From the sequence record OR539220.1: 64,000 nt of DNA, one strand, 5' to 3'. Every line of letters starts with the position of its first letter. Within the stretch, counting starts at the first letter, position 1. Below, piece by piece: positions 1,769 to 62,468 of this stretch. A program made the position numbers and the translations under genes. The DNA comes from Escherichia phage vB-Eco-KMB40. Below the pieces are notes generated by a model that saw nothing but the letters and a program-made list of their open reading frames with translations, was not told the DNA's origin and did no database searches.

Positions 1769-3393
<1,625 letters not shown>

Positions 3394-3394
<1 letters not shown>

Positions 3395-3633
3395 TGGAAG
3401 GTTTAATTGAAGCTATTAAATCAAACGACCTCGTAGCCGCTCGTAAATTATTTGCTGAAGCCATGGCTGCAAGAACGACTGATTTAATCAAAGAAGAAAA
3501 AATCACTATCGCTCGTAATTTCTTAATCGAAGGTGAAGAACCTGAAGACGAGGATGAAGATGATGACGAAGATAGCGATGATAAAGACGACAAAAAAGAC
3601 AAAGACTCTGACGAAGACGAGGATGATGAATAA
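3394..3633 (+). CDS. 67: Prohead core protein gp67 (acidic C-terminal tail)
   Basis: 79 aa ORF between genes 20 and 68; start overlaps gene 20 stop; strongly acidic D/E tail. Confidence 0.8.
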
Positions 3634-4058
3634 TGATTCTAATCCCTGAAACTCATGAATTAGTTCTCGAGAATGTCGAAGCACTTATTCCTGAAGCACA
3701 GGGTCGCTTTGACGAGTTGTCTTCTGCTTTAAATAAAGACGATATAAATAAAATTATCGAGAATATGCTTGATGATGAAACTGATTTAGCGGTTGCATTA
3801 GCTTCTATTAATGAAAATATGCCGTTAAATGAATTCATCGTTAAACATGTTTCTGCCCGTGGTGAAATTACTCGCACTAAAGATCGCAAAACCCGCGAAC
3901 GTAATGCATTTCAAACTACCGGGTTGTCTAAAGCAAAACGTAGACAAATTGCTCGTAAAGCTACCAAAACGAAGATTGCCAATCCAGCAGGTCAATCTCG
4001 TGCTCAGCGTAAGCGTAAAAAAGCTCTTAAACGCCGTAAAGCATTAGGATTAAGCTAA
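3633..4058 (+). CDS. 68: Prohead core protein gp68
   Basis: 141 aa ORF, start overlaps gp67 stop (ATGA); basic C-terminus; position as in T4. Confidence 0.8.
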
Positions 4059-4696
4059 TGAATGAACCCCAATTGCTAATTGAAACTTGGGGTCAACCTG
4101 GCGAAATTATTGATGGCGTGCCAATGCTTGAATCCCATGATGGGAAAGACTTAGGTTTAAAACCTGGTTTATACATCGAAGGAATATTCATGCAAGCAGA
4201 AGTCGTCAATAGAAATAAACGTCTTTATCCAAAACGCATATTAGAAAAAGCGGTAAAAGACTATATTAATGAGCAAGTTTTAACTAAACAAGCTCTCGGA
4301 GAATTAAATCATCCTCCACGCGCTAATGTTGACCCGATGCAAGCCGCTATCATTATAGAAGATATGTGGTGGAAAGGAAATGACGTATACGGACGAGCTC
4401 GTGTTATTGAAGGTGACCATGGTCCTGGAGATAAATTAGCAGCTAATATTCGTGCCGGATGGATTCCAGGAGTTTCTTCTCGTGGATTAGGTTCATTGAC
4501 TGACACAAATAAAGGTTATCGTATCGTAAACGAAGGATTCAAATTAACTGTAGGTGTTGATGCAGTATGGGGTCCAAGTGCTCCAGATGCATGGGTAACT
4601 CCTAAGGAAATTACCGAATCACAGACGGCGGAAGCCGATACAAGTGCCGATGACGCCTATATGGCTCTCGCAGAGGCCATGAAAAAAGCGTTATAA
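4058..4696 (+). CDS. 21: Prohead core scaffold protein and protease gp21
   Basis: 212 aa; N-terminus [17 protein letters not shown] matches T4 gp21. Confidence 0.9.
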   Translation: MNEPQLLIETWGQPGEIIDGVPMLESHDGKDLGLKPGLYIEGIFMQAEVVNRNKRLYPKRILEKAVKDYINEQVLTKQALGELNHPPRANVDPMQAAIIIEDMWWKGNDVYGRARVIEGDHGPGDKLAANIRAGWIPGVSSRGLGSLTDTNKGYRIVNEGFKLTVGVDAVWGPSAPDAWVTPKEITESQTAEADTSADDAYMALAEAMKKAL

Positions 4697-21762: not shown

Positions 21763-22727
21763 TGTATTCTTTAGAGGAATTTAATAATCAAGCAATAAAC
21801 GCAGACTTCCAACGTAATAATATGTTCAGCTGTGTTTTTGCTACAACTCCATCAACTAAAAGCTCATCGTTAATAAGCTCAATTAGTAACTTTGCTTATA
21901 ATAACTTGGGTCTAAATTCAGATTGGTTGGGATTAACTCAAGGTGATATTAATCAGGGAATTACCACGCTAATTACCGCTGGCACACAAAAACTGATAAG
22001 AAAATCAGGGGTTAGTAAATATCTTATTGGTGCCATGAGTCAACGTACAGTTCAAAGTTTATTAGGCTCATTTACAGTTGGTACATATTTAATTGACTTC
22101 TTTAACATGGCATATAACTCATCTGGATTGATGATATATTCTGTAAAAATGCCAGAAAATAGATTATCCTATGAAACTGACTGGAACTATAATTCTCCTA
22201 ATATTCGTATAACTGGAAGAGAATTAGACCCTTTGGTTATTTCATTTAGAATGGATTCAGAAGCTTGTAACTATCGTGCAATGCAAGACTGGGTTAACGC
22301 TGTTCAAGACCCAGTAACTGGATTGCGTGCTTTACCGCAAGATGTCGAGGCAGATATTCAGGTCAATCTTCATTCTCGCAATGGATTACCACATACTGCG
22401 GTGATGTTCACTGGCTGTATTCCAATATCTGTGAGTGCTCCTGAGTTATCATATGATGGAGATAACCAAATAACTACATTTGATGTTACTTTCGCTTATA
22501 GAGTCATGCAGGCTGGAGCAGTTGATAGACAAGCTGCCCTTGAATGGCTTGAATCTGCTACTATAAATGGTATTCAAAGCGTTCTCGGAAATAGTGGAGG
22601 TGTTACTGGACTATCTAATTCGCTTTCACGACTTAGTAGATTAGGGGGAACTGCAGGAAGCATTTCAAATATTAATACTATGACAGGAATTGTCAACTCG
22701 CAAAGTAAAATATTAGGAGCAATATAA
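21762..22727 (+). CDS. 54: Baseplate tail-tube initiator gp54
   Basis: 321 aa; matches T4 gp54; followed by bidirectional terminator hairpin. Confidence 0.85.
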   Translation: MYSLEEFNNQAINADFQRNNMFSCVFATTPSTKSSSLISSISNFAYNNLGLNSDWLGLTQGDINQGITTLITAGTQKLIRKSGVSKYLIGAMSQRTVQSLLGSFTVGTYLIDFFNMAYNSSGLMIYSVKMPENRLSYETDWNYNSPNIRITGRELDPLVISFRMDSEACNYRAMQDWVNAVQDPVTGLRALPQDVEADIQVNLHSRNGLPHTAVMFTGCIPISVSAPELSYDGDNQITTFDVTFAYRVMQAGAVDRQAALEWLESATINGIQSVLGNSGGVTGLSNSLSRLSRLGGTAGSISNINTMTGIVNSQSKILGAI

Positions 22728-22731
22728 CAAT

Positions 22732-22749
22732 GGGGACCGAAAGGTCCCC
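22732..22749. terminator. Bidirectional terminator hairpin between gene 54 and the alt block
   Basis: GGGGACC-GAAA-GGTCCCC followed by TTTTTATTT between convergent transcription units. Confidence 0.65.
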
Positions 22750-22755
22750 ATGTTT

Positions 22756-23046
22756 TTATTTACGGAATGAAATAAAAGCAGCAACTGAAGCAACAGAGGT
22801 TTCTTCAATATAAACCTCAATTTTTACCGGAGCTTCTGACTCAAATTTACCTGTTACTACACCCTGAAAAATACTTTCAGTCTGTTCTGGCTTTGAAAAA
22901 TTTTCAGAAGGAAAAATTCCGAACTTTTTATCTGTTCCAAAAATTTTGATAAATTCATCGTAAACTGCTTCATTGAAAGCGTTATCAGCGGGAATAACGC
23001 CTTCAACGACGAGTTCTTGACCTAAAAAGCGCAAAGAAGATTTCAT
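22756..23046 (-). CDS. Hypothetical protein (alt.-3 position)
   Basis: 96 aa ORF downstream of the Alt paralogs. Confidence 0.5.
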   Translation of the reverse strand: MKSSLRFLGQELVVEGVIPADNAFNEAVYDEFIKIFGTDKKFGIFPSENFSKPEQTESIFQGVVTGKFESEAPVKIEVYIEETSVASVAAFISFRK

Positions 23047-23106
23047 TTTGTGTTCCTCATGTTATGTCAGTAAGACTACTATAACACAACATGAGGGACT
23101 TGTAAA

Positions 23107-25164
23107 CTACATTTTGAACTTTTTAGACATTCCGTTGATGTTAACCAAAGAAGCTAAGATTTGAGAAACTTCGTTTTCCTCTTCTTTTGATTCTTCTACA
23201 AGGAATTGATTAAATCCAGCCATTGGACGAACTTCGCCAGTTTCCATTAGATGGTCGCCATCATATACTGATTCTTCTAATTGTTCAGAAGGAGGAACGA
23301 TTGTACCTTCGATTAGATACTTGTTATAAGCAGTTTCTTTCATAAAGTAAGTACTTACTTTATTAATCTTCAGTAAAATTCCACGTGGTAGAATAACTTC
23401 AGCTTCTGATGGAAATCCTGACAAATGACCTGGAACGATAACTTTAACTCGTTCAGCTCCTTTAATTACCATACCCACGCTAGTTTCAGCATCTTCATTA
23501 GCATATGTAGAATGACTACCCATATGCATCAAATCTTCTGCATCAACGGAACCTTCTCCTTCACCAGAAAATACTGCTCCGGAATTATCTAAGGCCATAT
23601 AATTTTTACCATACTCACCAAAGATATTTGGTTTAAGTGATGTCGATACGAAGTTCTTGAAATAGAACATTTTATTTTCAATGTTATGACGCAAAGTTTT
23701 AAAAGTAACTTCTTGTCCACGGTAAAGTGTAGTTCCTGGAGGAAGAACTGAACCTTTAGCGAATGCAGAATCCAGCGTCTCAATATGTTTAATAGCTCGT
23801 TCCATATATTCTTCACGTGTAGAATCAGGTTTACCTAAAAGGAATGAGTTCATTTCAACATACGAATCTGCGCAATAATCTTCAATTACATCAGACTCAG
23901 CCTGAGTCAATCCTTTTGGAGTTACTTCAGTGCTTGCATATTCATATGCCTGAGCAGCAGATTCATCAATTAATTTATAAATTCCATTCATTACAAATTG
24001 AATAATAGCTGTCTTTTCATCTGGTGTAGCTTTAGAACCTTTAACTAAATCATTGATAATTTTCTTAATAACATCAAAACTATTAGAAATATTAATATCA
24101 GCAAGATCACTTAAAATTTTATCAGTTTTATAATCAAAGAATTCTTTATTCTTTAAATATTCTTGAGAACCTTGATATGTTATATCGCTCTGCAGCTTGA
24201 TAGATGGATCGCGTAAACGTGCATGGGCCAATGCAATATGATTTCGGAAGCTTTCGAGTTCATAATCACTAGATTTAAAACGAGAAGCACTTCTCATACC
24301 ACCGATAGCTCCTTTGCTAAAGTTTGAACCAACCTGAATAACGCCAGAGTTCATTGGTCCTTCTGCTTTATATACCGGAACTTTAGATTCAAACTCTTGA
24401 TATTTCTTAGCAGCGAAGCTATCACCCTGAAGTGAAGCATCAACAGTAGAATATTGAGCTTGCGCTGCTAATCGACGACTAATTTTAGTTTTCTGAATAA
24501 CAGCTTGATCCGTGCGCTTATCATTTTCTAAAGCAATAGAAGCAGCAACAGCAACAGCTTTAGGAACAGCATTACCTGTTTTAACGTCTACATAAACATC
24601 ACCAACCTTTGATTCAACTTTTGTGAATAACTCGGTTGAAATAGGAGGTACACCTGGAATGTCTTCTAAATTGGCATTTTTACGGTAAACCATAATATAT
24701 GCGTACTTTTTATCATAATCCCAGATTTCCTTTAAAAGAACATATCGACCTGCTCCTTTAGTACGTACTAAACGGTCAGCAATAACTTGCATTTGCCGAG
24801 CAGCGCCATTTGTTTTACTTTTTAGTACGCGGAATAAGCATGCATCAATTTTATACTGTTTCATTGTTTGAAGAGCAGTATCAAAAACAGCATTAATGAC
24901 GCCAATTGGATTTCCACCCAAGTTTTTAAGCTTAACTAATGATAGTTTCTCATTAACACCTATCATTACGATATGCATCATTTTGTCGCCTGGCTTAACG
25001 TTTTTATTCGTATCACCGCCAGAGGTGTATGTACAAAATCTAAATCCAGGAAGCACGCTTTCTTCACCTGCTTGAATAGCAAAAATTTGAGGTATTTTAT
25101 GCTTAGGATTTAAGTTAACAACCGGCGCCGAAGCGCCGTCAAATAATTCTGTAATAAGTTCCAT
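23107..25164 (-). CDS. Alt-family ADP-ribosyltransferase paralog (685 aa)
   Basis: N-terminus MELITELFD shared with upstream paralog; C-terminal R-S-ExE ART motifs: TLYRGQ, FVSTSL, SEAEVILPRG. Confidence 0.8.
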   Translation of the reverse strand: MELITELFDGASAPVVNLNPKHKIPQIFAIQAGEESVLPGFRFCTYTSGGDTNKNVKPGDKMMHIVMIGVNEKLSLVKLKNLGGNPIGVINAVFDTALQTMKQYKIDACLFRVLKSKTNGAARQMQVIADRLVRTKGAGRYVLLKEIWDYDKKYAYIMVYRKNANLEDIPGVPPISTELFTKVESKVGDVYVDVKTGNAVPKAVAVAASIALENDKRTDQAVIQKTKISRRLAAQAQYSTVDASLQGDSFAAKKYQEFESKVPVYKAEGPMNSGVIQVGSNFSKGAIGGMRSASRFKSSDYELESFRNHIALAHARLRDPSIKLQSDITYQGSQEYLKNKEFFDYKTDKILSDLADINISNSFDVIKKIINDLVKGSKATPDEKTAIIQFVMNGIYKLIDESAAQAYEYASTEVTPKGLTQAESDVIEDYCADSYVEMNSFLLGKPDSTREEYMERAIKHIETLDSAFAKGSVLPPGTTLYRGQEVTFKTLRHNIENKMFYFKNFVSTSLKPNIFGEYGKNYMALDNSGAVFSGEGEGSVDAEDLMHMGSHSTYANEDAETSVGMVIKGAERVKVIVPGHLSGFPSEAEVILPRGILLKINKVSTYFMKETAYNKYLIEGTIVPPSEQLEESVYDGDHLMETGEVRPMAGFNQFLVEESKEEENEVSQILASLVNINGMSKKFKM

Positions 25165-25167
25165 GAT

Positions 25168-27261
25168 TTATCCTTGAACGAACTTGTAAGGCATGTTTGT
25201 AATATCTATGCAAGACGCAATAATTCCAAGAGATGATTCTACTTTCTGTTTAATATTTGATGAAACAAATGATGCAAAGTCAACTCTGTCTTCTATTTCA
25301 ATATCACCTGTCATTGCAACCAATTCACCAGTTTCCATTAAATGGTCTCCATCATAGATTACCGATTCGGTGAGCTCTTCCGTGGTCATAACTTCAGCTT
25401 GAATGAGTTTTGTATTATTAGATGTTGTTCCGTCATTATTAGAAGCATCGGTTATTTTATTAACTTTGACCATCAATCCACGCGGTAGAATAACTTCAGC
25501 TTCTGTTGCTATTCCGAGACTTCCTGGATATACAACATTAACTTTATGAGCTCCATCAATTGCCCATCCTATTTGAACTTTAACATATTCAGGATTTTCT
25601 TTATACGCTCTTATTTCGTTTGGATTAATAGTTATTCCTTCTTCATTTTTATCAACTGTTAATTCATTGCGAGCTTCTGGTTCTAAAAGACCAATACCAG
25701 CATGTGTGATTCCAAAACGTCCAAAAATGATAGGAGTTAAAGAAGTAGATACAAAATTTCTGAAGTAGAACACTTTATTTTTAACTAACGCTTCATATAT
25801 AGGAGCAGTCATACTTTGAGCACGATAAACTGTAATGCCTTCTGGTATACGGTCACCATTTTCAAAAGCTGAATCTAAATTATTTATAGCAGATTCAATT
25901 TCTTTTTCACTCATTATATCATATCGTTCTGGATTGTAACGACCTAAAAGAAGATTATTGATGTCTGTATATCCTGAACCACAATACTCTCTAATGCCGC
26001 GCTTTTGTGATGGAGTATATTTAGAACCATCACGGGCAATAGTAATATCAATCATTGGACCTGCACAAATTCCGGAAAAGCTATAAATCATTCGTTTGAG
26101 GAATTTAGTTTTTGCTGCATTCCAGGCATTTTTAGTTATTTCTCCCCAGACTTCATCTGGCTGCCCTTTACGAGTTTTATTATGTTTATCAAGCCAATTA
26201 TCTTTATATTCTTCAAATAATTGATTAACAGCTGCTGCGTATTTCTCTAAACATTTTATTGAAGTAGTTGGTTCATTTTTAATCGCATTAAGAATTACAT
26301 CTTTAATTTTTTCTGAAACTTCATCAACCTCACTTTTTGAAAAGAATTTATAGTCATAGTGAAGTTCATTCGCAGTTCCTTCAGCAATAATTTTTGCTGC
26401 CTTTGTTTTAGAAGCTAATGAATTAATTCCAATTTTCATTTCTTCTGCTTCGGGAATTAAAGGTGCAGTAGCTGGTTTATTAAAATTAGCTGCTGTAGAT
26501 TCATACTTCTGGAATAATTCACTTTCAAATCTAGAAGATTCCAATGACTGACTTTGTGCAATTGCTCTACGGGAAATTTTAACTTTAACGATTACAGCTT
26601 GATCAGAACGTTTATCATTTTCTTGTGCAATTGATGCTGCAATTGCCTCATTTTTAGTTACTTGAGCTCCAGTATCTTTATTGATATAAACATCACCGAC
26701 CTTCGATTCAACTTTAGTAAAAAGCTCGGTACTAATTTCCGGAACTCCTGGAATGTCTTCTAGTGATACATTTTTGCGATGTATAAGAATATATGCGTAC
26801 TTTTTATCATAATCCCAGAGTTCCTTAAGAAGGACGTATCTGCCACCTGAACGACTACGGATAAGTCTATCAGCAATAACTTGAATTTGTCGAGCTTGAC
26901 CAGCGGTTTTAGACTTAAGAATACGAAGCATGCAGGCATCAATTTTATACTGACGCATTGTTTGCATTGCAACAGTAAAAACTGAATTGATATAATTAAT
27001 TGGGCTTGGACCAAGACCTTTTAATTTGGCAATTGAACCTTTAGCAGTTAATGTAAAAGGAACAATATGCATCATTTTATCGCCCATCTTTAAATCGCGA
27101 TTAGTATCACCTCCAGATGTATAGGTACATAAACGAAAGCCTGGTTGTTCAATTGCATCATCAACATGAACTGAAAAAATTTGTGGTATTTTCTTCTTTG
27201 GATTTAAGTTTGTAATCGGAAGAGTAGTATCTTCGTCAAATAATTCTGTAATAAGTTCCAT
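25168..27261 (-). CDS. alt: Alt ADP-ribosyltransferase (697 aa)
   Basis: N-terminus MELITELFDEDTTLPITNL as remembered for T4 Alt; ART motifs TVYRAQ, FVSTSL, TEAEVILPRG. Confidence 0.8.
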   Translation of the reverse strand: MELITELFDEDTTLPITNLNPKKKIPQIFSVHVDDAIEQPGFRLCTYTSGGDTNRDLKMGDKMMHIVPFTLTAKGSIAKLKGLGPSPINYINSVFTVAMQTMRQYKIDACMLRILKSKTAGQARQIQVIADRLIRSRSGGRYVLLKELWDYDKKYAYILIHRKNVSLEDIPGVPEISTELFTKVESKVGDVYINKDTGAQVTKNEAIAASIAQENDKRSDQAVIVKVKISRRAIAQSQSLESSRFESELFQKYESTAANFNKPATAPLIPEAEEMKIGINSLASKTKAAKIIAEGTANELHYDYKFFSKSEVDEVSEKIKDVILNAIKNEPTTSIKCLEKYAAAVNQLFEEYKDNWLDKHNKTRKGQPDEVWGEITKNAWNAAKTKFLKRMIYSFSGICAGPMIDITIARDGSKYTPSQKRGIREYCGSGYTDINNLLLGRYNPERYDIMSEKEIESAINNLDSAFENGDRIPEGITVYRAQSMTAPIYEALVKNKVFYFRNFVSTSLTPIIFGRFGITHAGIGLLEPEARNELTVDKNEEGITINPNEIRAYKENPEYVKVQIGWAIDGAHKVNVVYPGSLGIATEAEVILPRGLMVKVNKITDASNNDGTTSNNTKLIQAEVMTTEELTESVIYDGDHLMETGELVAMTGDIEIEDRVDFASFVSSNIKQKVESSLGIIASCIDITNMPYKFVQG

Positions 27262-27297
27262 GTTATCCTCTCTAGTGTTTATTCTATTTATAAAATT

Positions 27298-27315
27298 AAA
27301 GGCCCGAAGGCCTTT
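27298..27315 (-). terminator. Hairpin between the ligase operon and alt
   Basis: AAAGGCC-CGAA-GGCCTTT. Confidence 0.45.
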
Positions 27316-27317
27316 AA

Positions 27318-27503
27318 TTAATAGAGAGCTAAAAGAGTACGATATACTTCAAACTTTGGACCTTTTTCATAGGCATCAAATGTTTCTGTGAATTTATTAT
27401 AAGCATATGCATCTATAAATTCAATCATGATTTGTGATACAGAAGTAGAAACATCTCCACCTTCTTTTTGAGCCACGACAATTGTTTCTAAGTAAGCTTT
27501 CAT
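27318..27503 (-). CDS. Hypothetical 61-aa protein
   Basis: Start overlaps ligase stop (ATGA-type coupling); followed by hairpin 27298-27315. Confidence 0.4.
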   Translation of the reverse strand: MKAYLETIVVAQKEGGDVSTSVSQIMIEFIDAYAYNKFTETFDAYEKGPKFEVYRTLLALY

Positions 27504-28963
27504 AAACCAGTTACCTCATGAAAATCACCAAATACATCTTCGAATGTATTAGCTTTAGTTTTATCTTCGCGTAAACGAATCGCAATTGGAAGAAATAGCT
27601 TAACGTAATCAGTACGTCCATCTAATTTTACCCAGCCGTTGCATTCGCACTCTAGAATTTTTCCAATATAATAATTTTGGTTTTCCATAATGCGAGTACG
27701 ATCAAGTTCATGCGATTTTATACCGGCTTTATCTTTTAAGCCTGAACCAGCATTTACTTTAATTTTTCCACACTCTGATTCAAGAATGAAACCACCTGCT
27801 TTAGTAGGGTCTTTACGGTGAGGATAAATTCCTACAATTTTTAAATCAACATCAATTACTTCTTTAAATTTATAAAGATTTTTTGAACGAGCATTTTCCC
27901 ATAATCCATCGATATTTTTAAGAATAATACCTTCAAGACCTTGGTCAATATACTTTTTATAAATTACCTTAGCTTCATCTAGGTTATTTACTACTTGGTT
28001 TTCAATTAAAATTACTTTATCATAGCCTGATGTCATTTGTTCTAGTTTAGAAAAACGTACATCATATTTTAAACGAAATGCTGGAAGACCATATATTTCT
28101 ACTAATGGAACATAGTCCCAGACCTGAAACTTCATGCATTGTGCTTCTTTTTCAGAAATGGTTCCCTTTAAAGATTTATTAGCGATTCCATTAGAAGTAG
28201 TACGTGATTCAGCTACTTCGGCGAATTCTTTAGCTTTACTAATTTCAGGATAAGCATCAAAAAGAAAATCTAGGCCTTCTGGTTCCTTTTTAACTTGCTC
28301 ATGGTATACCAATTCGCCATCAATTAACACACCTTCTGGATGAATCTGGCGAGCTTCTGCAGTCATTTTGATTAACTCTTCCTTGAGAAGATCTAATCCT
28401 AGATATTCATTACCAGCTCGTGATAAAAGACGAACATCATCTAATTCATCACCTCTGACTTCAGCAAAACAGCGAGCTCCATCAGCTTTTAGCTGTGCAA
28501 AGGCTGGAAATTTGATATTCTTATTAATGCCTTTTTCGTCATAAGAACTTGCTAGCATTTGAGGTTGTTCAGGAATTAAACCTGGCCAAACTTTGTTTGC
28601 AATAGATACTGATGCACCGCATTCAAGGTCTCGCATCATCACCCGACGCAAAACTTCAACATCATCTTTTTTACCGTCAGTAATATATCCAGTTAATTCC
28701 TCAATTGCCGCATTTCCAGTCAATTTCCGAGTAGCTAACGTGAATTCAATGAAGTCAAGCATATCGGTAAGAGTCAACATTCCAAAACTCTGGGTAGTAA
28801 TACCCGGTTTAGGCCATTTCTTGATATAATACTGTAACCCACGAGAATAAGTCAGACGATATACTCGTTTAAGCAATTCATTATCTTTATTCTTTTCAAG
28901 AATTGCTTGCTTCTGCTTAGTTGAACCAATAGATGCTATTTCGTTCAGAATTTTAAGAATCAT
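27500..28963 (-). CDS. 30: ATP-dependent DNA ligase gp30
   Basis: 487 aa as T4 ligase; adenylation motif KADGAR; N-terminus MILKILNEIASIGSTKQK. Confidence 0.9.
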   Translation of the reverse strand: MILKILNEIASIGSTKQKQAILEKNKDNELLKRVYRLTYSRGLQYYIKKWPKPGITTQSFGMLTLTDMLDFIEFTLATRKLTGNAAIEELTGYITDGKKDDVEVLRRVMMRDLECGASVSIANKVWPGLIPEQPQMLASSYDEKGINKNIKFPAFAQLKADGARCFAEVRGDELDDVRLLSRAGNEYLGLDLLKEELIKMTAEARQIHPEGVLIDGELVYHEQVKKEPEGLDFLFDAYPEISKAKEFAEVAESRTTSNGIANKSLKGTISEKEAQCMKFQVWDYVPLVEIYGLPAFRLKYDVRFSKLEQMTSGYDKVILIENQVVNNLDEAKVIYKKYIDQGLEGIILKNIDGLWENARSKNLYKFKEVIDVDLKIVGIYPHRKDPTKAGGFILESECGKIKVNAGSGLKDKAGIKSHELDRTRIMENQNYYIGKILECECNGWVKLDGRTDYVKLFLPIAIRLREDKTKANTFEDVFGDFHEVTGL

Positions 28964-29229
28964 TGTTCATCCTTTAGAGTTTGGTTTACAGCTCTATTAT
29001 AAATCAATTCATCATTAAGCTCAGTCAAAGACCTGTGATACGTGGTTCTAACTTTATTTCCTTGCATCCAGTGCTTGACATAAATGAAACCTTGCTCTAC
29101 ACATTTTTTAAAAATTCGTTCGTCTTTTTGAGCTCGGAATTCTGGATTGCATCTAAAAAATTGATTTACGTGACCGTAATCACGTGTAGTATTACCTTCA
29201 TTTTCATAAATAGTGTGAACGACAAACAT
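28960..29229 (-). CDS. Hypothetical protein (30.1 position)
   Basis: 89 aa ORF translationally coupled to ligase. Confidence 0.5.
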   Translation of the reverse strand: MFVVHTIYENEGNTTRDYGHVNQFFRCNPEFRAQKDERIFKKCVEQGFIYVKHWMQGNKVRTTYHRSLTELNDELIYNRAVNQTLKDEQ

Positions 29230-30065
29230 TAGAATGCTCCTTGGAAAATATTATCACCACTAGTAGGTCTATTATACAAATACTCTATGCCACCGGGTTT
29301 AATATAGTTCCATGTCTGAAACGGATGCGTCTGATATGGATGATATAGATTATAAGGATTAAATCCAGGAGTTCTCCAGGTAGTGTTCCAAGGAAAAGAA
29401 TCGTTTTTAATCATCTTTTCAATTACATCTTTTATAGCTTTTTCACTATCAAAACTTTCTTTATTTTCATTCGATGGAAAAAGCTTATTCTCTACATCAT
29501 TCCATGTATAAACTCGCTGTGCAGTTTTTGGAATATTGTCACGCTCTCCTCGAGCCATCCAATAAACAGGAACATTTAATATTTCACTCGCATGATCGCA
29601 GTGGTGAGCGAGATCGTCAATATAACAAATTACGTTATATTTCTCTTTTGCCTTTTTGAACAACTCTTCTTTTGAAGAATCATGACCACACATCAATACT
29701 TCTGAGAAGGCATCAGGAAAAAGAGCATTCAAATTAAATTGACGATTCAGCAGAGCGTCAATAGAATCACCCAGTGCTGTAACAGCTACAAAATTATAAT
29801 CTTCTTTTAATTTGTTAATTACACACAGGGCATCTTTATATGGAGACAAATAGCGAATAAAATCTGAACGATTATACTTTTCGATTAATTTAACACCAAG
29901 TTCTTCATCGCAATTAAAGAGCTTACCAGGAGAAATAAATTTTTCGTCCTGAATCATTTTTAAAATATGTTCCAACGGAAGATTATATTTTTGGGCAAAA
30001 TAAGGAAGGCCTGATTGCCAGCTTAAACATACACCATCAATATCAGTCAAAATAGTAGGCTTCAT
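29229..30065 (-). CDS. HAD-superfamily hydrolase-like protein (30.2 position)
   Basis: 278 aa; N-terminal ILTDIDGV matches HAD motif I (DxDG). Confidence 0.6.
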   Translation of the reverse strand: MKPTILTDIDGVCLSWQSGLPYFAQKYNLPLEHILKMIQDEKFISPGKLFNCDEELGVKLIEKYNRSDFIRYLSPYKDALCVINKLKEDYNFVAVTALGDSIDALLNRQFNLNALFPDAFSEVLMCGHDSSKEELFKKAKEKYNVICYIDDLAHHCDHASEILNVPVYWMARGERDNIPKTAQRVYTWNDVENKLFPSNENKESFDSEKAIKDVIEKMIKNDSFPWNTTWRTPGFNPYNLYHPYQTHPFQTWNYIKPGGIEYLYNRPTSGDNIFQGAF

Positions 30066-60992: not shown

Positions 60993-61004
60993 TTGGAGGT
61001 TTAT

Positions 61005-61781
61005 ATGGCAGTAACAGGACCGTGGGTAGGATCGTCTGCAGTAGTTAATACAGGACAAAATTGGATGGGTGGCGCGGCCCAACGATTAAGAATGGGCATT
61101 CCGTTCTGGATGAGTAATATGATAGGCCGATCTGTTGAAATAATTCACACGCTTGGAGCAGACCATAACTTCAATGGTCAATGGTTCCGAGATAGATGTT
61201 TTGAGGCAGGTAGTGCACCTATAGTGTTTAATATCACTGGAGATTTAGTATCATATTCTAAAGATGTTCCTTTATTCTTCATGTACGGGGATACACCAAA
61301 TGAATATGTTCAGTTGAATATACATGGCGTAACGATGTATGGTCGTGGCGGGAACGGCGGTAGCAATAGTCCTGGCTCAGCTGGGGGTCATTGTATTCAA
61401 AATGATATTGGTGGGAGACTAAGAATTAATAATGGCGGAGCTATTGCAGGTGGCGGTGGCGGCGGCGGTGGCGGTTATTATTCTCCTTTTTCACAAATGA
61501 GATTAACCTTTGGCGGTGGCGGTGGGCGTCCGTTTGGTGCACCTGGCGGATCTATTGATATGCAATCAGGCGCAACTGCTGGTACTATTTCTGCGCCTGG
61601 AGCAGGGTCTGTGAACGGTATCTATAATGGCGGGAATGGTGGTGAAGTTGGCTCCGCAGGAGGTAGATGTAATATTCGTGGTCAAGGATATGAATACGAT
61701 GGCGGAGCTGCTGGTTATGCCGTCATAGGGTCTACGCCGACATGGCAAAACGTTGGAGCAATATATGGTCCAAGAGTATAA
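61005..61781 (+). CDS. 38: Tail fibre adhesin gp38 (T2-type, glycine-rich motifs)
   Basis: ATG 61005 with GGAGG RBS (ORF track starts at TTG 60993); N-terminus [21 protein letters not shown] and poly-Gly blocks as remembered for T2 gp38. Confidence 0.85.
61449..61475 (+). repeat. GGY trinucleotide tract encoding nine consecutive glycines in gp38
   Basis: GGT GGC GGT GGC GGC GGC GGT GGC GGT in frame. Confidence 0.8.
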
Positions 61782-61811: not shown

Positions 61812-62468
61812 ATGGCAGCACCTAGAATATCATTTTCGCCCTCTGATATTCTGTTGGGTGTTCTAGATCGCTTGTTCAAAGATAACGCTACCGGGAAAGT
61901 TCTTGCTTCCCGGGTAGCTGTCGTAATTCTTTTATTTATGATGGCGATTGTTTGGTATAGGGGAGATAGTTTCTTTGAGTACTATAAGCAATCAAAGTAT
62001 GAAACATACAGTGAAATTATTGAAAAGGAAAGAAATGCACGCTTTGAATCTGTCGCCCTGGAACAACTCCAGATAGTTCATATATCATCTGAGGCAGACT
62101 TTAGTGCGGTGTATTCTTTCCGCCCTAAAAACTTAAACTATTTTGTTGATATTATAGCATATGAAGGAAAATTACCTTCAACAATAAGTGAAAAATCACT
62201 TGGAGGATATCCTGTTGATAAAACTATGGATGAATATACAGTTCATTTAAATGGACGTCATTATTATTCCAACTCAAAATTTGCTTTTTTACCAACTAAA
62301 AAGCCTACTCCCGAGATAAACTACATGTACAGTTGTCCATATTTTAATTTGGATAATATCTATGCTGGAACGATAACCATGTACTGGTATAGAAATGATC
62401 ATATAAGTAATGACCGCCTTGAATCAATATGTGCTCAGGCGGCCAGAATATTAGGAAGGGCTAAATAA
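61812..62468 (+). CDS. t: Holin T
   Basis: 218 aa as T4 holin; single N-terminal TM segment VAVVILLFMMAIVWY. Confidence 0.9.
   Translation: MAAPRISFSPSDILLGVLDRLFKDNATGKVLASRVAVVILLFMMAIVWYRGDSFFEYYKQSKYETYSEIIEKERNARFESVALEQLQIVHISSEADFSAVYSFRPKNLNYFVDIIAYEGKLPSTISEKSLGGYPVDKTMDEYTVHLNGRHYYSNSKFAFLPTKKPTPEINYMYSCPYFNLDNIYAGTITMYWYRNDHISNDRLESICAQAARILGRAK

Follow-up and report, generated by a model that had tools for sequence, protein, structure and literature searches.

In Escherichia phage vB-Eco-KMB40, a T2/RB14/RB51-like Tequatrovirus and T2-like relative of T4 (record OR539220.1; the window analysed comprises 64,000 nucleotides), two full-length ORFs, designated altA and alt2, are arranged in tandem on the minus strand (Table 1). 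Their position between alt.1/gene 30 and alt.-3/gene 54, together with a T4-type late promoter, is that of the Alt-family locus. The stop codon of altA is separated from the ATG of alt2 by only 3 nt (TAA ATC ATG). The late promoter box TATAAATA, which is kept in T4, T2, and ECML-134, is likely the promoter of an altA-alt2 late transcript; no late promoter was found directly upstream of alt2, and for this reason the two genes are taken to be co-transcribed. The GC-rich hairpin preceding the box, equally kept in these three phages, looks like a terminator of upstream early transcription; it is absent from the listing of the consensus terminator scan.

Table 1. Features of the alt locus of vB-Eco-KMB40 (positions are those of the window).
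Feature	Position	Strand	Description
Bidirectional terminator	22730-22751		After alt.-3
alt.-3	22756..23046	minus	96 aa, DUF5498; adjoins alt2 downstream
alt.-3 early-type promoter	23078-23106		GTTTACA-17-TATAGT
alt2	23107..25164	minus	685 aa ORF; intact counterpart of the T4 alt.-1/alt.-2 remnant
alt2 residues 632-685	23110..23271	minus	Predicted C-terminal propeptide after LEE-631; holds the conserved YDGDHLMETGE block
CTAAAAAGT, downstream copy	23118..23126	minus	Right boundary of the deletion in T4
alt2 residues 416-625	23290..23919	minus	ADP-ribosyltransferase (ART) catalytic domain (Pfam stretch 416-620)
alt2 residues 239-415	23920..24450	minus	All-helical hypervariable middle (AF2 secondary structure, identity matrices)
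alt2 residues 1-238	24451..25164	minus	N-terminal 'Tevenvirinae_ADPRT' (PF26846) module
CTAAAAAGT, upstream copy	24817..24825	minus	9-bp direct repeat; left boundary of the deletion in T4
altA	25168..27261	minus	697 aa ORF; positional ortholog of T4 alt
alt2 Shine-Dalgarno AAGGA	25171..25175	minus	Within the final codons of altA
altA N-domain	26548-27261		
altA parts			Propeptide 1-6 (ITE-6), N-domain to ~238, helical middle, ART domain, LTE-632, C-terminal tail
Late promoter box TATAAATA	27285..27292	minus	T4-type; 24 nt 5' of the altA ATG
GC-rich hairpin	27298..27315	minus	AAAGGCC-TTCG-GGCCTTT, then AATTTT; read from the sequence, between late promoter and alt.1
alt.1	27318..27503	minus	61 aa, Pfam Phage_blade; adjoins altA upstream
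Gene 30 (DNA ligase)	27500-28963		Beyond alt.1, upstream; synteny with T4

The two ORFs had been described in a sequence-only reading as adjacent genes with a common N-terminus, a divergent centre and complete R-S-ExE signatures, and each of these points is borne out. The coordinates are exact, and the products are full-length paralogs with 41% identity over their full length (BLASTP, E 1e-160), far beyond chance; the overall identity ranges from 41 to 44%. The first 29 nt of both genes are 100% identical, giving the common start MELITELFD, and the similarity that had been put at about 230 residues extends over residues 1-238 (68% identity). Identity falls to 15-18% in residues 239-415 and amounts to 34-37% in the ART region (416-625) and 42% in the C-terminal tail. 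The catalytic motifs are TVYR480AQ, FVS505TS (S505-T-S507), and TE587AE589VILPRG in altA and TLYR482GQ, FVS507TS (S507-T-S509), and SE587AE589VILPRG in alt2; in a family alignment of 26 sequences, no variation is seen at the R, S, and E-x-E positions.

Both proteins match the Pfam profile PF03496 (ADPrib_exo_Tox) with 129.1 bits (altA) and 71.7 bits (alt2) at a cut-off of 23.4 bits, and phrog_802 is matched end to end with 909 and 855 bits, respectively. Among precomputed hits, PF26846 is recorded for homologs with 98% identity as well as for genes of related loci; the local Pfam scan, the copy of which perhaps does not include this model, returned no match of it to either protein. In the AF2 models both termini are disordered; that of alt2 has a pLDDT of 74, with values below 50 for residues 629-685, and matches Vis, C3, Certhrax, CDTa, and VIP2 (Foldseek probability 1.0, E 4e-7 to 1e-4, TM to target of about 0.6). 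A profile alignment to solved ARTs spans the Y-R and Q/E-x-E motifs, so that alt2 has the predicted catalytic fold and the motifs in common with C3 exoenzyme, Vis, Certhrax, and the enzymatic components of the VIP2, iota, and CDTa type. Judged from profile, motif order, and modelled fold, altA and alt2 belong to the R-S-E clade of ARTs, and from their profile matches (phrog_802; PF26846 with PF03496) they are assignable to the T4 Alt family. ModA and ModB of T4 are likewise R-S-E-clade phage ARTs serving host takeover; these are early proteins of about 200 aa that are not known to possess an N-terminal packaging module or propeptides or to be packaged. The build common to altA and alt2 consists of four parts, namely, a 6-residue propeptide with the gp21 prohead-protease site ITE as its end, a Tevenvirinae-specific N-domain of about 230 residues, the helical, hypervariable middle with a C3/VIP2-type ART, and a C-tail of about 55-65 residues after L-x-E. 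The N-terminal module of alt2 is presumed to direct the protein to the prohead core, and its middle (239-415) is a candidate determinant of target recognition.

Characteristics expected of a T4 Alt family member include presence in the virion (about 40 copies), injection together with the DNA, and ADP-ribosylation of RNA polymerase alpha as well as other host proteins. T4 Alt (NP_049811; NAD+--arginine ADP-ribosyltransferase, 682 aa) agrees with altA and alt2 in locus, late promoter, four-part build, ITE-6, L-x-E, and the R / S-T-S / E-x-E residues. It is cleaved at ITE-6 and LTE-619 (PMC5694885), and mutation of its E-x-E glutamate abolishes activity (PMC11404850). Motifs of the gp21 type are found at the aligned positions of both proteins, with ITE-6 in either, LTE-632 in altA, and LEE-631 in alt2; since L-x-E motifs are common, cleavage at LEE-631 is proposed on the basis of its alignment to the mapped T4 site. 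Compared with T4 Alt, altA is 100% identical in the N-domain, 32% in the middle, 65-66% in the ART, and 95-96% in the C-tail, and synonymous divergence from T4 alt, which amounts to 0.1 in the flanking parts, reaches 1.2-1.4 in the central part. By this comparison, the middle and ART regions of altA are identifiable as an allele other than that of T4.

The alt.-1/alt.-2 interval of T4 (NP_049810 and NP_049809), which the sequence-only reading had considered as a possible second intact copy, turned out upon alignment to be frameshifted and deleted. Its alt.-1 translation starts with MELITELFDGASAPVV, which is the alt2 N-terminus, and the DNA aligns base for base with alt2 over ~360 nt at the start of the gene and ~12 nt at its end. 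A 1-bp deletion at codon ~54 causes the frameshift, and a clean deletion of ~1.7 kb is bounded in alt2 by the two CTAAAAAGT copies, a single one of which is held by the T4 junction. The same junction occurs in 91 of 498 phage records. The corresponding families phrog_23015 and phrog_15247 score 138 and 131 bits with alt2 versus 78 and 70 bits with altA. From this alignment, alt.-1/alt.-2 is recognizable as a decayed full-length alt2 paralog, that is, orthologous DNA at the same locus. In the note of the T4 GenBank record, by contrast, the interval is described as duplicating 'the first part of gene alt'.

The same pair, with 97% nucleotide identity, is shared by some 400 phage records, T2, RB14, RB51, and RB68 among them. 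The interval from alt.-3 to alt.1 is 97% identical at the nucleotide level to RB68, RB51, wV7, RB14, and others, and 347 records cover at least 80% of it; many of these are annotated with two Alt-like ARTs, frequently as "Alt-like RNA polymerase ADP-ribosyltransferase (x2)". At the protein level, alt2 is found at 95% identity or above in about 396 records. T2 has both genes, the second (BBC14817, 'hypothetical protein') being 98.5% identical to alt2 at the amino acid level; in RB14 and RB51 the second gene is labelled 'alt.-2', and in the Dhakavirus IME08 the gene order is alt.1-alta-altb-alt.-3-54. The second alt of T2, 'alt.-2' of RB14/RB51, and IME08 'altb' / JS10 Alt are the same gene as alt2 under differing names. 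IME08 altB is 43% identical to alt2 in the middle, 57% in the ART, and 64% in the C-tail, with identical synteny; identity matrices for the middle as well as the ART region place alt2 with IME08 altB and altA with IME08 altA. The Dhakavirus N-domain is genus-specific and 44-46% identical to Tequatrovirus N-domains. The two-gene alt locus is the majority and probably the ancestral form. It is normal in most T-even phages and already annotated there, and the duplication of alt has been noted by Nolan et al. 2006 (PMC1524935) and in the T4 GenBank record. The novelty that had been raised for the pair is not upheld; most relatives carry both paralogs, and the arrangement is therefore conserved, with T4 as the exception among T-even phages because most of its second copy has been deleted.

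The alt locus is recombinogenic, with middle and ART regions swapped as cassettes. Single-gene chimeras, in which the altA N-domain is fused to the alt2 body, are found in the isolates ECML-134, SCS4, and PST, which shows that the N-modules are interchangeable. Reshuffling of the locus would proceed by unequal recombination between the two repeated N-domains. Elsewhere, alt2 is inactivated by an 8-bp duplication at codon 257 (16 contigs, L010) or by a 1-bp deletion at codon 153 (L013). From its repeated natural loss it follows that alt2 is dispensable in some hosts; it is an accessory gene, well conserved where present and repeatedly lost.

Taken as a whole, the locus probably represents an ancestral tandem pair of mono-ADP-ribosyltransferase genes subject to recombination, with altA as the T4 alt ortholog and alt2 as the intact form of alt.-1/alt.-2, the products of which would be expressed late, packaged, injected, and directed to distinct targets. 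Transcription of altA and alt2 would start late in infection from the TATAAATA box upstream of altA. Both proteins would be taken into the prohead core via the common N-terminal module, would be cut by gp21 at the N- and C-terminal ends, and would enter the host with the phage DNA. There, each enzyme would ADP-ribosylate arginines of a particular set of host proteins, the choice of targets depending on the middle and ART regions, in which the two diverge. Conserved gp21 motifs, the late promoter, and naturally occurring chimeras with exchanged N-domains lend weight to the view that Alt2 would be packaged, processed, and injected; that its targets would differ from those of Alt is suggested by the sequence divergence.

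An arrangement in which Alt2 is a redundant dosage copy that modifies the same targets (e.g., Arg265 of RNA polymerase alpha) and provides more enzyme per head is rather unlikely. The catalytic motifs, the arginine-type E-x-E, the processing motifs at both ends, and the transcription unit are indeed common to both genes, and either body has been lost in nature, alt2 in T4 and the altA body in ECML-134 and PST. However, the identity in the middle and ART regions is as low as given above, the altA and alt2 lineages are distinct across genera (IME08 altA / altB), and both genes are under purifying selection; by reason of these three features, subfunctionalised paralogs fit better than dosage copies. 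For alt2, the selection is strong, with a dN/dS of 0.03 at a dS of 0.20 versus T2 and of 0.13 versus a 75%-identical homolog. These values, the invariance of every catalytic residue, the abundance of closely similar records, and the retention of the paralog in another genus make it extremely improbable that alt2 is an emerging pseudogene devoid of a selected function, as might be thought from its at least three independent inactivations (T4 deletion plus frameshift, L010, and L013).

It is also quite improbable that Alt2 stays unpackaged and acts late in the producing cell, or is a structural core component with ART activity being secondary. The literature search found no direct evidence of Alt2 being in virions, cleaved, injected, or active, no virion proteomics mentioning the second paralog, and no functional study of alt2; furthermore, Alt has been described as an important T4 core protein in an earlier report cited in PMC11404850. 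Against this stand the conservation of the N-terminal nine residues, ITE-6, the N-domain, and L-x-E / YDGDHLMETGE with the packaged T4 Alt, and the persistence in isolates of the altA N-module on an alt2 body. Very little probability is likewise given to an acceptor other than protein arginine, such as nucleic acid, or to the attachment of NAD-capped RNA; for the latter, a precedent is ModB, an R-S-E-clade phage ART which RNAylates proteins according to work cited in PMC9503650, but both the E-x-E motif and the most similar folds (those of C3, Vis, and toxins of the iota and CDTa type) are those of protein-modifying enzymes.

Beyond the tandem pair of packaged enzymes with distinct targets, a wider reading is put forward tentatively, in which the locus would be a set of recombination-driven effector cassettes. 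A genus-specific packaging module, made up of the N-domain and the terminal propeptides and staying uniform across the tandem copies, would be combined with middle/ART 'warheads' exchanged among paralogs, alleles, and genera; alt2 would be a second injected ART with targets distinct from those of T4 Alt, possibly with a role in counter-defence, overlooked since T4 has deleted it. Within this scheme, the modular recombination is what is directly observed. A conserved delivery module with a fast-evolving, exchangeable effector is likewise known from polymorphic toxins and MuF-fused head-packaged effectors (Aravind group, PMC5512222, PMC9503650). In contrast to the MuF-fused effectors, altA and alt2 contain no MuF domain; they stand outside those families, and the exchange at this locus takes place among tandem paralogs and T-even genera.

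The two-gene arrangement as such is an ordinary genomic feature, and the deposited T-even genomes in which it is annotated number in the hundreds. Knowledge of injected phage ADP-ribosyltransferases is derived nearly exclusively from T4, which has no second enzyme; that enzyme is retained by about four-fifths of the sequenced Tequatrovirus records, T2 among them. The remaining value of the finding is practical and concerns whether a second injected ART alters host takeover or the sensitivity to defence systems. In addition, the chimeras and cassette swaps delimit the delivery module of Alt versus its payload, which is relevant to the engineering of T4-type heads for protein delivery.

Both minus-strand ORFs were found exactly where the sequence-only reading had placed them, and their paralogy is borne out by BLASTP, in which altA, the positional ortholog of T4 alt, and alt2, the second Alt paralog, share 41% identity over their full length (E 1e-160). 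The stop codon of altA is separated from the start of alt2 by 3 nt (TAA ATC ATG), with the Shine-Dalgarno sequence AAGGA of alt2 lying within the final altA codons. At the DNA level, the genes form a tandem direct repeat with a spacing of 2094-2097 nt; the opening 29 nt are common to both (100% identity), and the N-domain coding DNA is ~72% identical. Similarity is uneven along the length, amounting to 68% identity for residues 1-238, 15-18% for residues 239-415, 34-37% for the ADP-ribosyltransferase (ART) domain, and 42% for the tail; this agrees with the shared N-terminus, the ~230 similar residues and the divergent middle that had been described. Both products match Pfam PF03496 ADPrib_exo_Tox (altA, 129.1 bits; alt2, 71.7 bits; cut-off 23.4). 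The catalytic signatures are complete, with every motif quoted earlier recovered (R480, S505-T-S, and E587-A-E589 in altA; R482, S507-T-S, and E587-A-E589 in alt2) and the motif columns invariant in an alignment of 26 family members. The earlier functional reading, that is, two catalytically competent enzymes that may both be packaged and injected and differ in target, is reasonable.

T4 carries a single alt gene (682 aa), followed by the small ORFs alt.-1 and alt.-2 at the alt2 position, described in the GenBank note as stemming from an old duplication of the beginning of alt. Whether this interval represents a second intact copy had been left uncertain; the DNA alignment, which matches T4 to the alt2 of the window nearly base for base and unambiguously, shows that it does not. 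The T4 copy has lost 1 bp from a run of A at codon ~54 and lacks ~1.7 kb exactly between two copies of CTAAAAAGT, one of which is kept. Upon translation, the interval reads MELITELFDGASAPVVTLNPKHKIPQIFAIQAGEESVLPGFRFCTYTSGGDTNK and then runs into stop codons, corresponding to the N-terminus of alt2 and not to that of alt. On alt2, the PHROG families of alt.-1 and alt.-2 reach 138 and 131 bits, versus 78 and 70 bits on altA. On the combined strength of N-terminus, DNA alignment and PHROG scores, alt.-1/alt.-2 is the remnant of a second paralog that was once full-length.

By tblastn, alt2 is present at ≥95% amino acid identity in 396 phage records. Classic T2 is among its carriers (98.5% amino acid identity), where the gene is annotated merely as "hypothetical protein". 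A 141-nt probe spanning the T4 deletion junction matched 498 records, in 91 of which (T4 strains, G8, ACG-C40, HMD-9, and others) the match extended over its whole length, while most of the remainder matched only one half of it. The gene order in Dhakavirus IME08 is alt.1-alta-altb-alt.-3-54. Thus, the pair is the majority state; it is probably also the ancestral one, with T4 being the derived exception. The novelty that had been considered possible is therefore not upheld; the two-gene feature is already known and widespread, and alt duplications in T4, RB49, and 44RR were noted by Nolan et al. 2006 (PMC1524935). This identity and evolutionary account of altA and alt2 is regarded as close to certain.

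The gene order 54 / alt.-3 / alt2 / altA / alt.1 / 30 is the same in T4. Over the alt interval, nucleotide identity to RB68, RB51, wV7, RB14, AR1-type, and numerous further Tequatrovirus genomes is 97%, the two genes being 98-99.7% identical to deposited ones. A 4.9-kb alt query matched 544 records, with ≥80% coverage in 347, and many of these are annotated as "Alt-like RNA polymerase ADP-ribosyltransferase (x2)" or as "alt" plus "alt.-2". The tail-fibre adhesin gp38 fits a T2-like rather than a T4-like phage, and its region accounts for a local G+C rise to 43%; it is followed by holin T at 61812-62468. In T4, mutations that extend Alt.-3 at its C-terminus allow escape from the CmdTAC defence system (PMC11618068). 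A 278-aa ORF at 29229-30065 (minus strand), at the position of T4 30.2, had no Pfam match at E ≤ 0.001, the longest plus-strand ORF examined for hidden features measured 59 aa, and an Rfam search of 22500-27700 returned zero matches. A sigma-70 promoter scan, used solely for the early-type promoter upstream of alt.-3, showed no enrichment (27 found versus 24.7 expected in shuffles).

Coordinates of features in the window and in compared loci
Feature	Sequence	Position	Strand	Description
altA	window	25168..27261	minus	ORF, 697 aa
alt2	window	23107..25164	minus	ORF, 685 aa
CTAAAAAGT copies	window	24817-24825 and 23118-23126		flank the T4 deletion
alt.-3	window	22756-23046	minus	DUF5498, 96 aa, intact
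early-type promoter of alt.-3	window	23078-23106		GTTTACA-17-TATAGT, in alt2/alt.-3 spacer
bidirectional terminator	window	22730-22751		near alt.-3
alt.1	window	27318-27503	minus	61 aa, recent Pfam family PF24647 "Phage_blade"
gp38	window	60993-61781	plus	T2-type tail-fibre adhesin, 262 aa, Pfam GP38 plus Gp38_N
single chimeric alt	L005	6001-8055		
single chimeric alt	ECML-134 (L008)	2501-4561		
single chimeric alt	PST (L009)	2501-4561		
frameshifted alt2	L010	2683-4748		split in two ORFs
frameshifted alt2	L013	3031-5087		split in two ORFs

For alt2 of the window compared with that of T2, dS is 0.20 and dN 0.006 (dN/dS 0.03); comparison with a metagenomic homolog of 75% identity gives a dN/dS of 0.13. 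Its AF2 model (mean pLDDT 74) comprises an alpha/beta N-domain (~12-226), an all-helical region (~240-470), an ART core (~470-625), and a disordered tail (629-685). In Foldseek, the catalytic part matched Vis, C3, Certhrax, CDTa, and VIP2 with probability 1.0. As a single sequence, alt2 had zero matches among PDB chains; known ARTs were reached by the Alt family profile only, in which the Y-R and E-x-E segments align with those of solved ARTs, and neither the PDB-chain sequence search nor the profile search found a solved Alt structure. The T4 Alt "E577A" mutant is catalytically dead (PMC11404850); since translation of NC_000866 places the motif at E574-M-E576, the published number is apparently offset by one, while LTE-619 of Ali et al. 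2017 is consistent with NC_000866.

In T4, Alt is a prohead-core protein of ~40 copies that is ejected into the host (PMC9026906), and the prohead protease gp21 cleaves it after ITE-6 and LTE-619, with loss of 63 C-terminal residues (PMC5694885). The opening nine residues of alt2, ITE-6 included, are identical to those of T4 Alt. At the aligned C-terminal position alt2 has LEE-631, followed by a conserved YDGDHLMETGE block, and altA has the candidate site LTE-632; both termini are of low confidence or disordered in the predicted models. From these features, packaging and gp21 processing of alt2 are inferred. In the literature searched, which comprised few subscription journals, so that absence is weak evidence, nothing specific was found on function or virion proteomics of a second Alt paralog.

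A T4-type late promoter box, TATAAATA, is located 24 nt upstream of the altA ATG, immediately preceded by a GC-rich hairpin after alt.1, and is kept in T4, T2, and ECML-134. There is no such box directly upstream of alt2; co-transcription with altA from the late promoter upstream of altA is therefore the simplest reading. The closest exact copy lies inside altA at 25881-25888 (minus strand), some 720 nt before alt2 begins. This copy may either serve alt2 as an internal late promoter or have arisen by chance; TATAAATA occurs 19 times in the window versus 9.4 expected.

Among proteins with 89-95% identity to alt2, several are clean chimeras: their sequence is that of altA as far as a breakpoint near residue 45, 100, 180, or 215 and that of alt2 beyond it, each with one A-to-2 switch at the DNA level. 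A chimera is the sole alt gene between alt.1 and alt.-3 in locus L005, ECML-134, SCS4, and PST; therefore, the altA body was deleted several times, by unequal crossing-over between the N-domain repeats. Repetition of such events would explain why the breakpoint is not the same in ECML-134, PST, L005, and the metagenomic proteins P0003, P0004, and P0007. An origin as assembly artefacts is ruled out because ECML-134, SCS4, and PST, which are cultured and completely sequenced, have the same architecture. In other lineages alt2 itself has been disrupted, in 16 contigs by the tandem duplication of 8 bp (AGTTTGAA) at codon 257 and, independently, by loss of 1 bp at codon 153; in the split gene, the downstream ORF would specify the ART portion but not the packaging module.

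Compared with T4 alt, altA of the window is 100% identical in the N-domain and 95-96% in the C-tail (dS ~0.1 in these flanks), versus 32% in the middle and 65-66% in the ART domain (dS 1.2-1.4), a mosaic that appears to be allelic cassette replacement. The window-type allele occurs in 316 records and a 60-80% identical one, as in T4, in 211; SHFML-26 and similar phages combine the latter (70.8% to altA of the window) with an undeleted alt2. With IME08 altA, identity is 95% in the ART domain (nt 86-98%) versus 46% in the N-domain, pointing to cassette transfer from one genus to another. Cassettes thus seem to have been exchanged both inside a genus and across genera to give the altA mosaic. N-domains group by genus, the two paralogs sharing 68% in Tequatrovirus and 67% in IME08, versus 42-47% for cross-genus pairs irrespective of paralog. 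In the middle, ART, and tail regions, A-type paralogs stand apart from 2/B-type ones, alt2 grouping with IME08 altB; A-type alleles differ widely among themselves. Either concerted evolution by gene conversion, or independent duplication in each genus with later cassette capture, would account for the genus-wise N-domains.

Summarizing, the Alt2 protein would be packaged and injected and would act on targets distinct from those of Alt, a mechanism considered somewhat more probable than its negation. Because T4 lost alt2, packaging, injection, and targets of the second paralog have gone unasked in the field.
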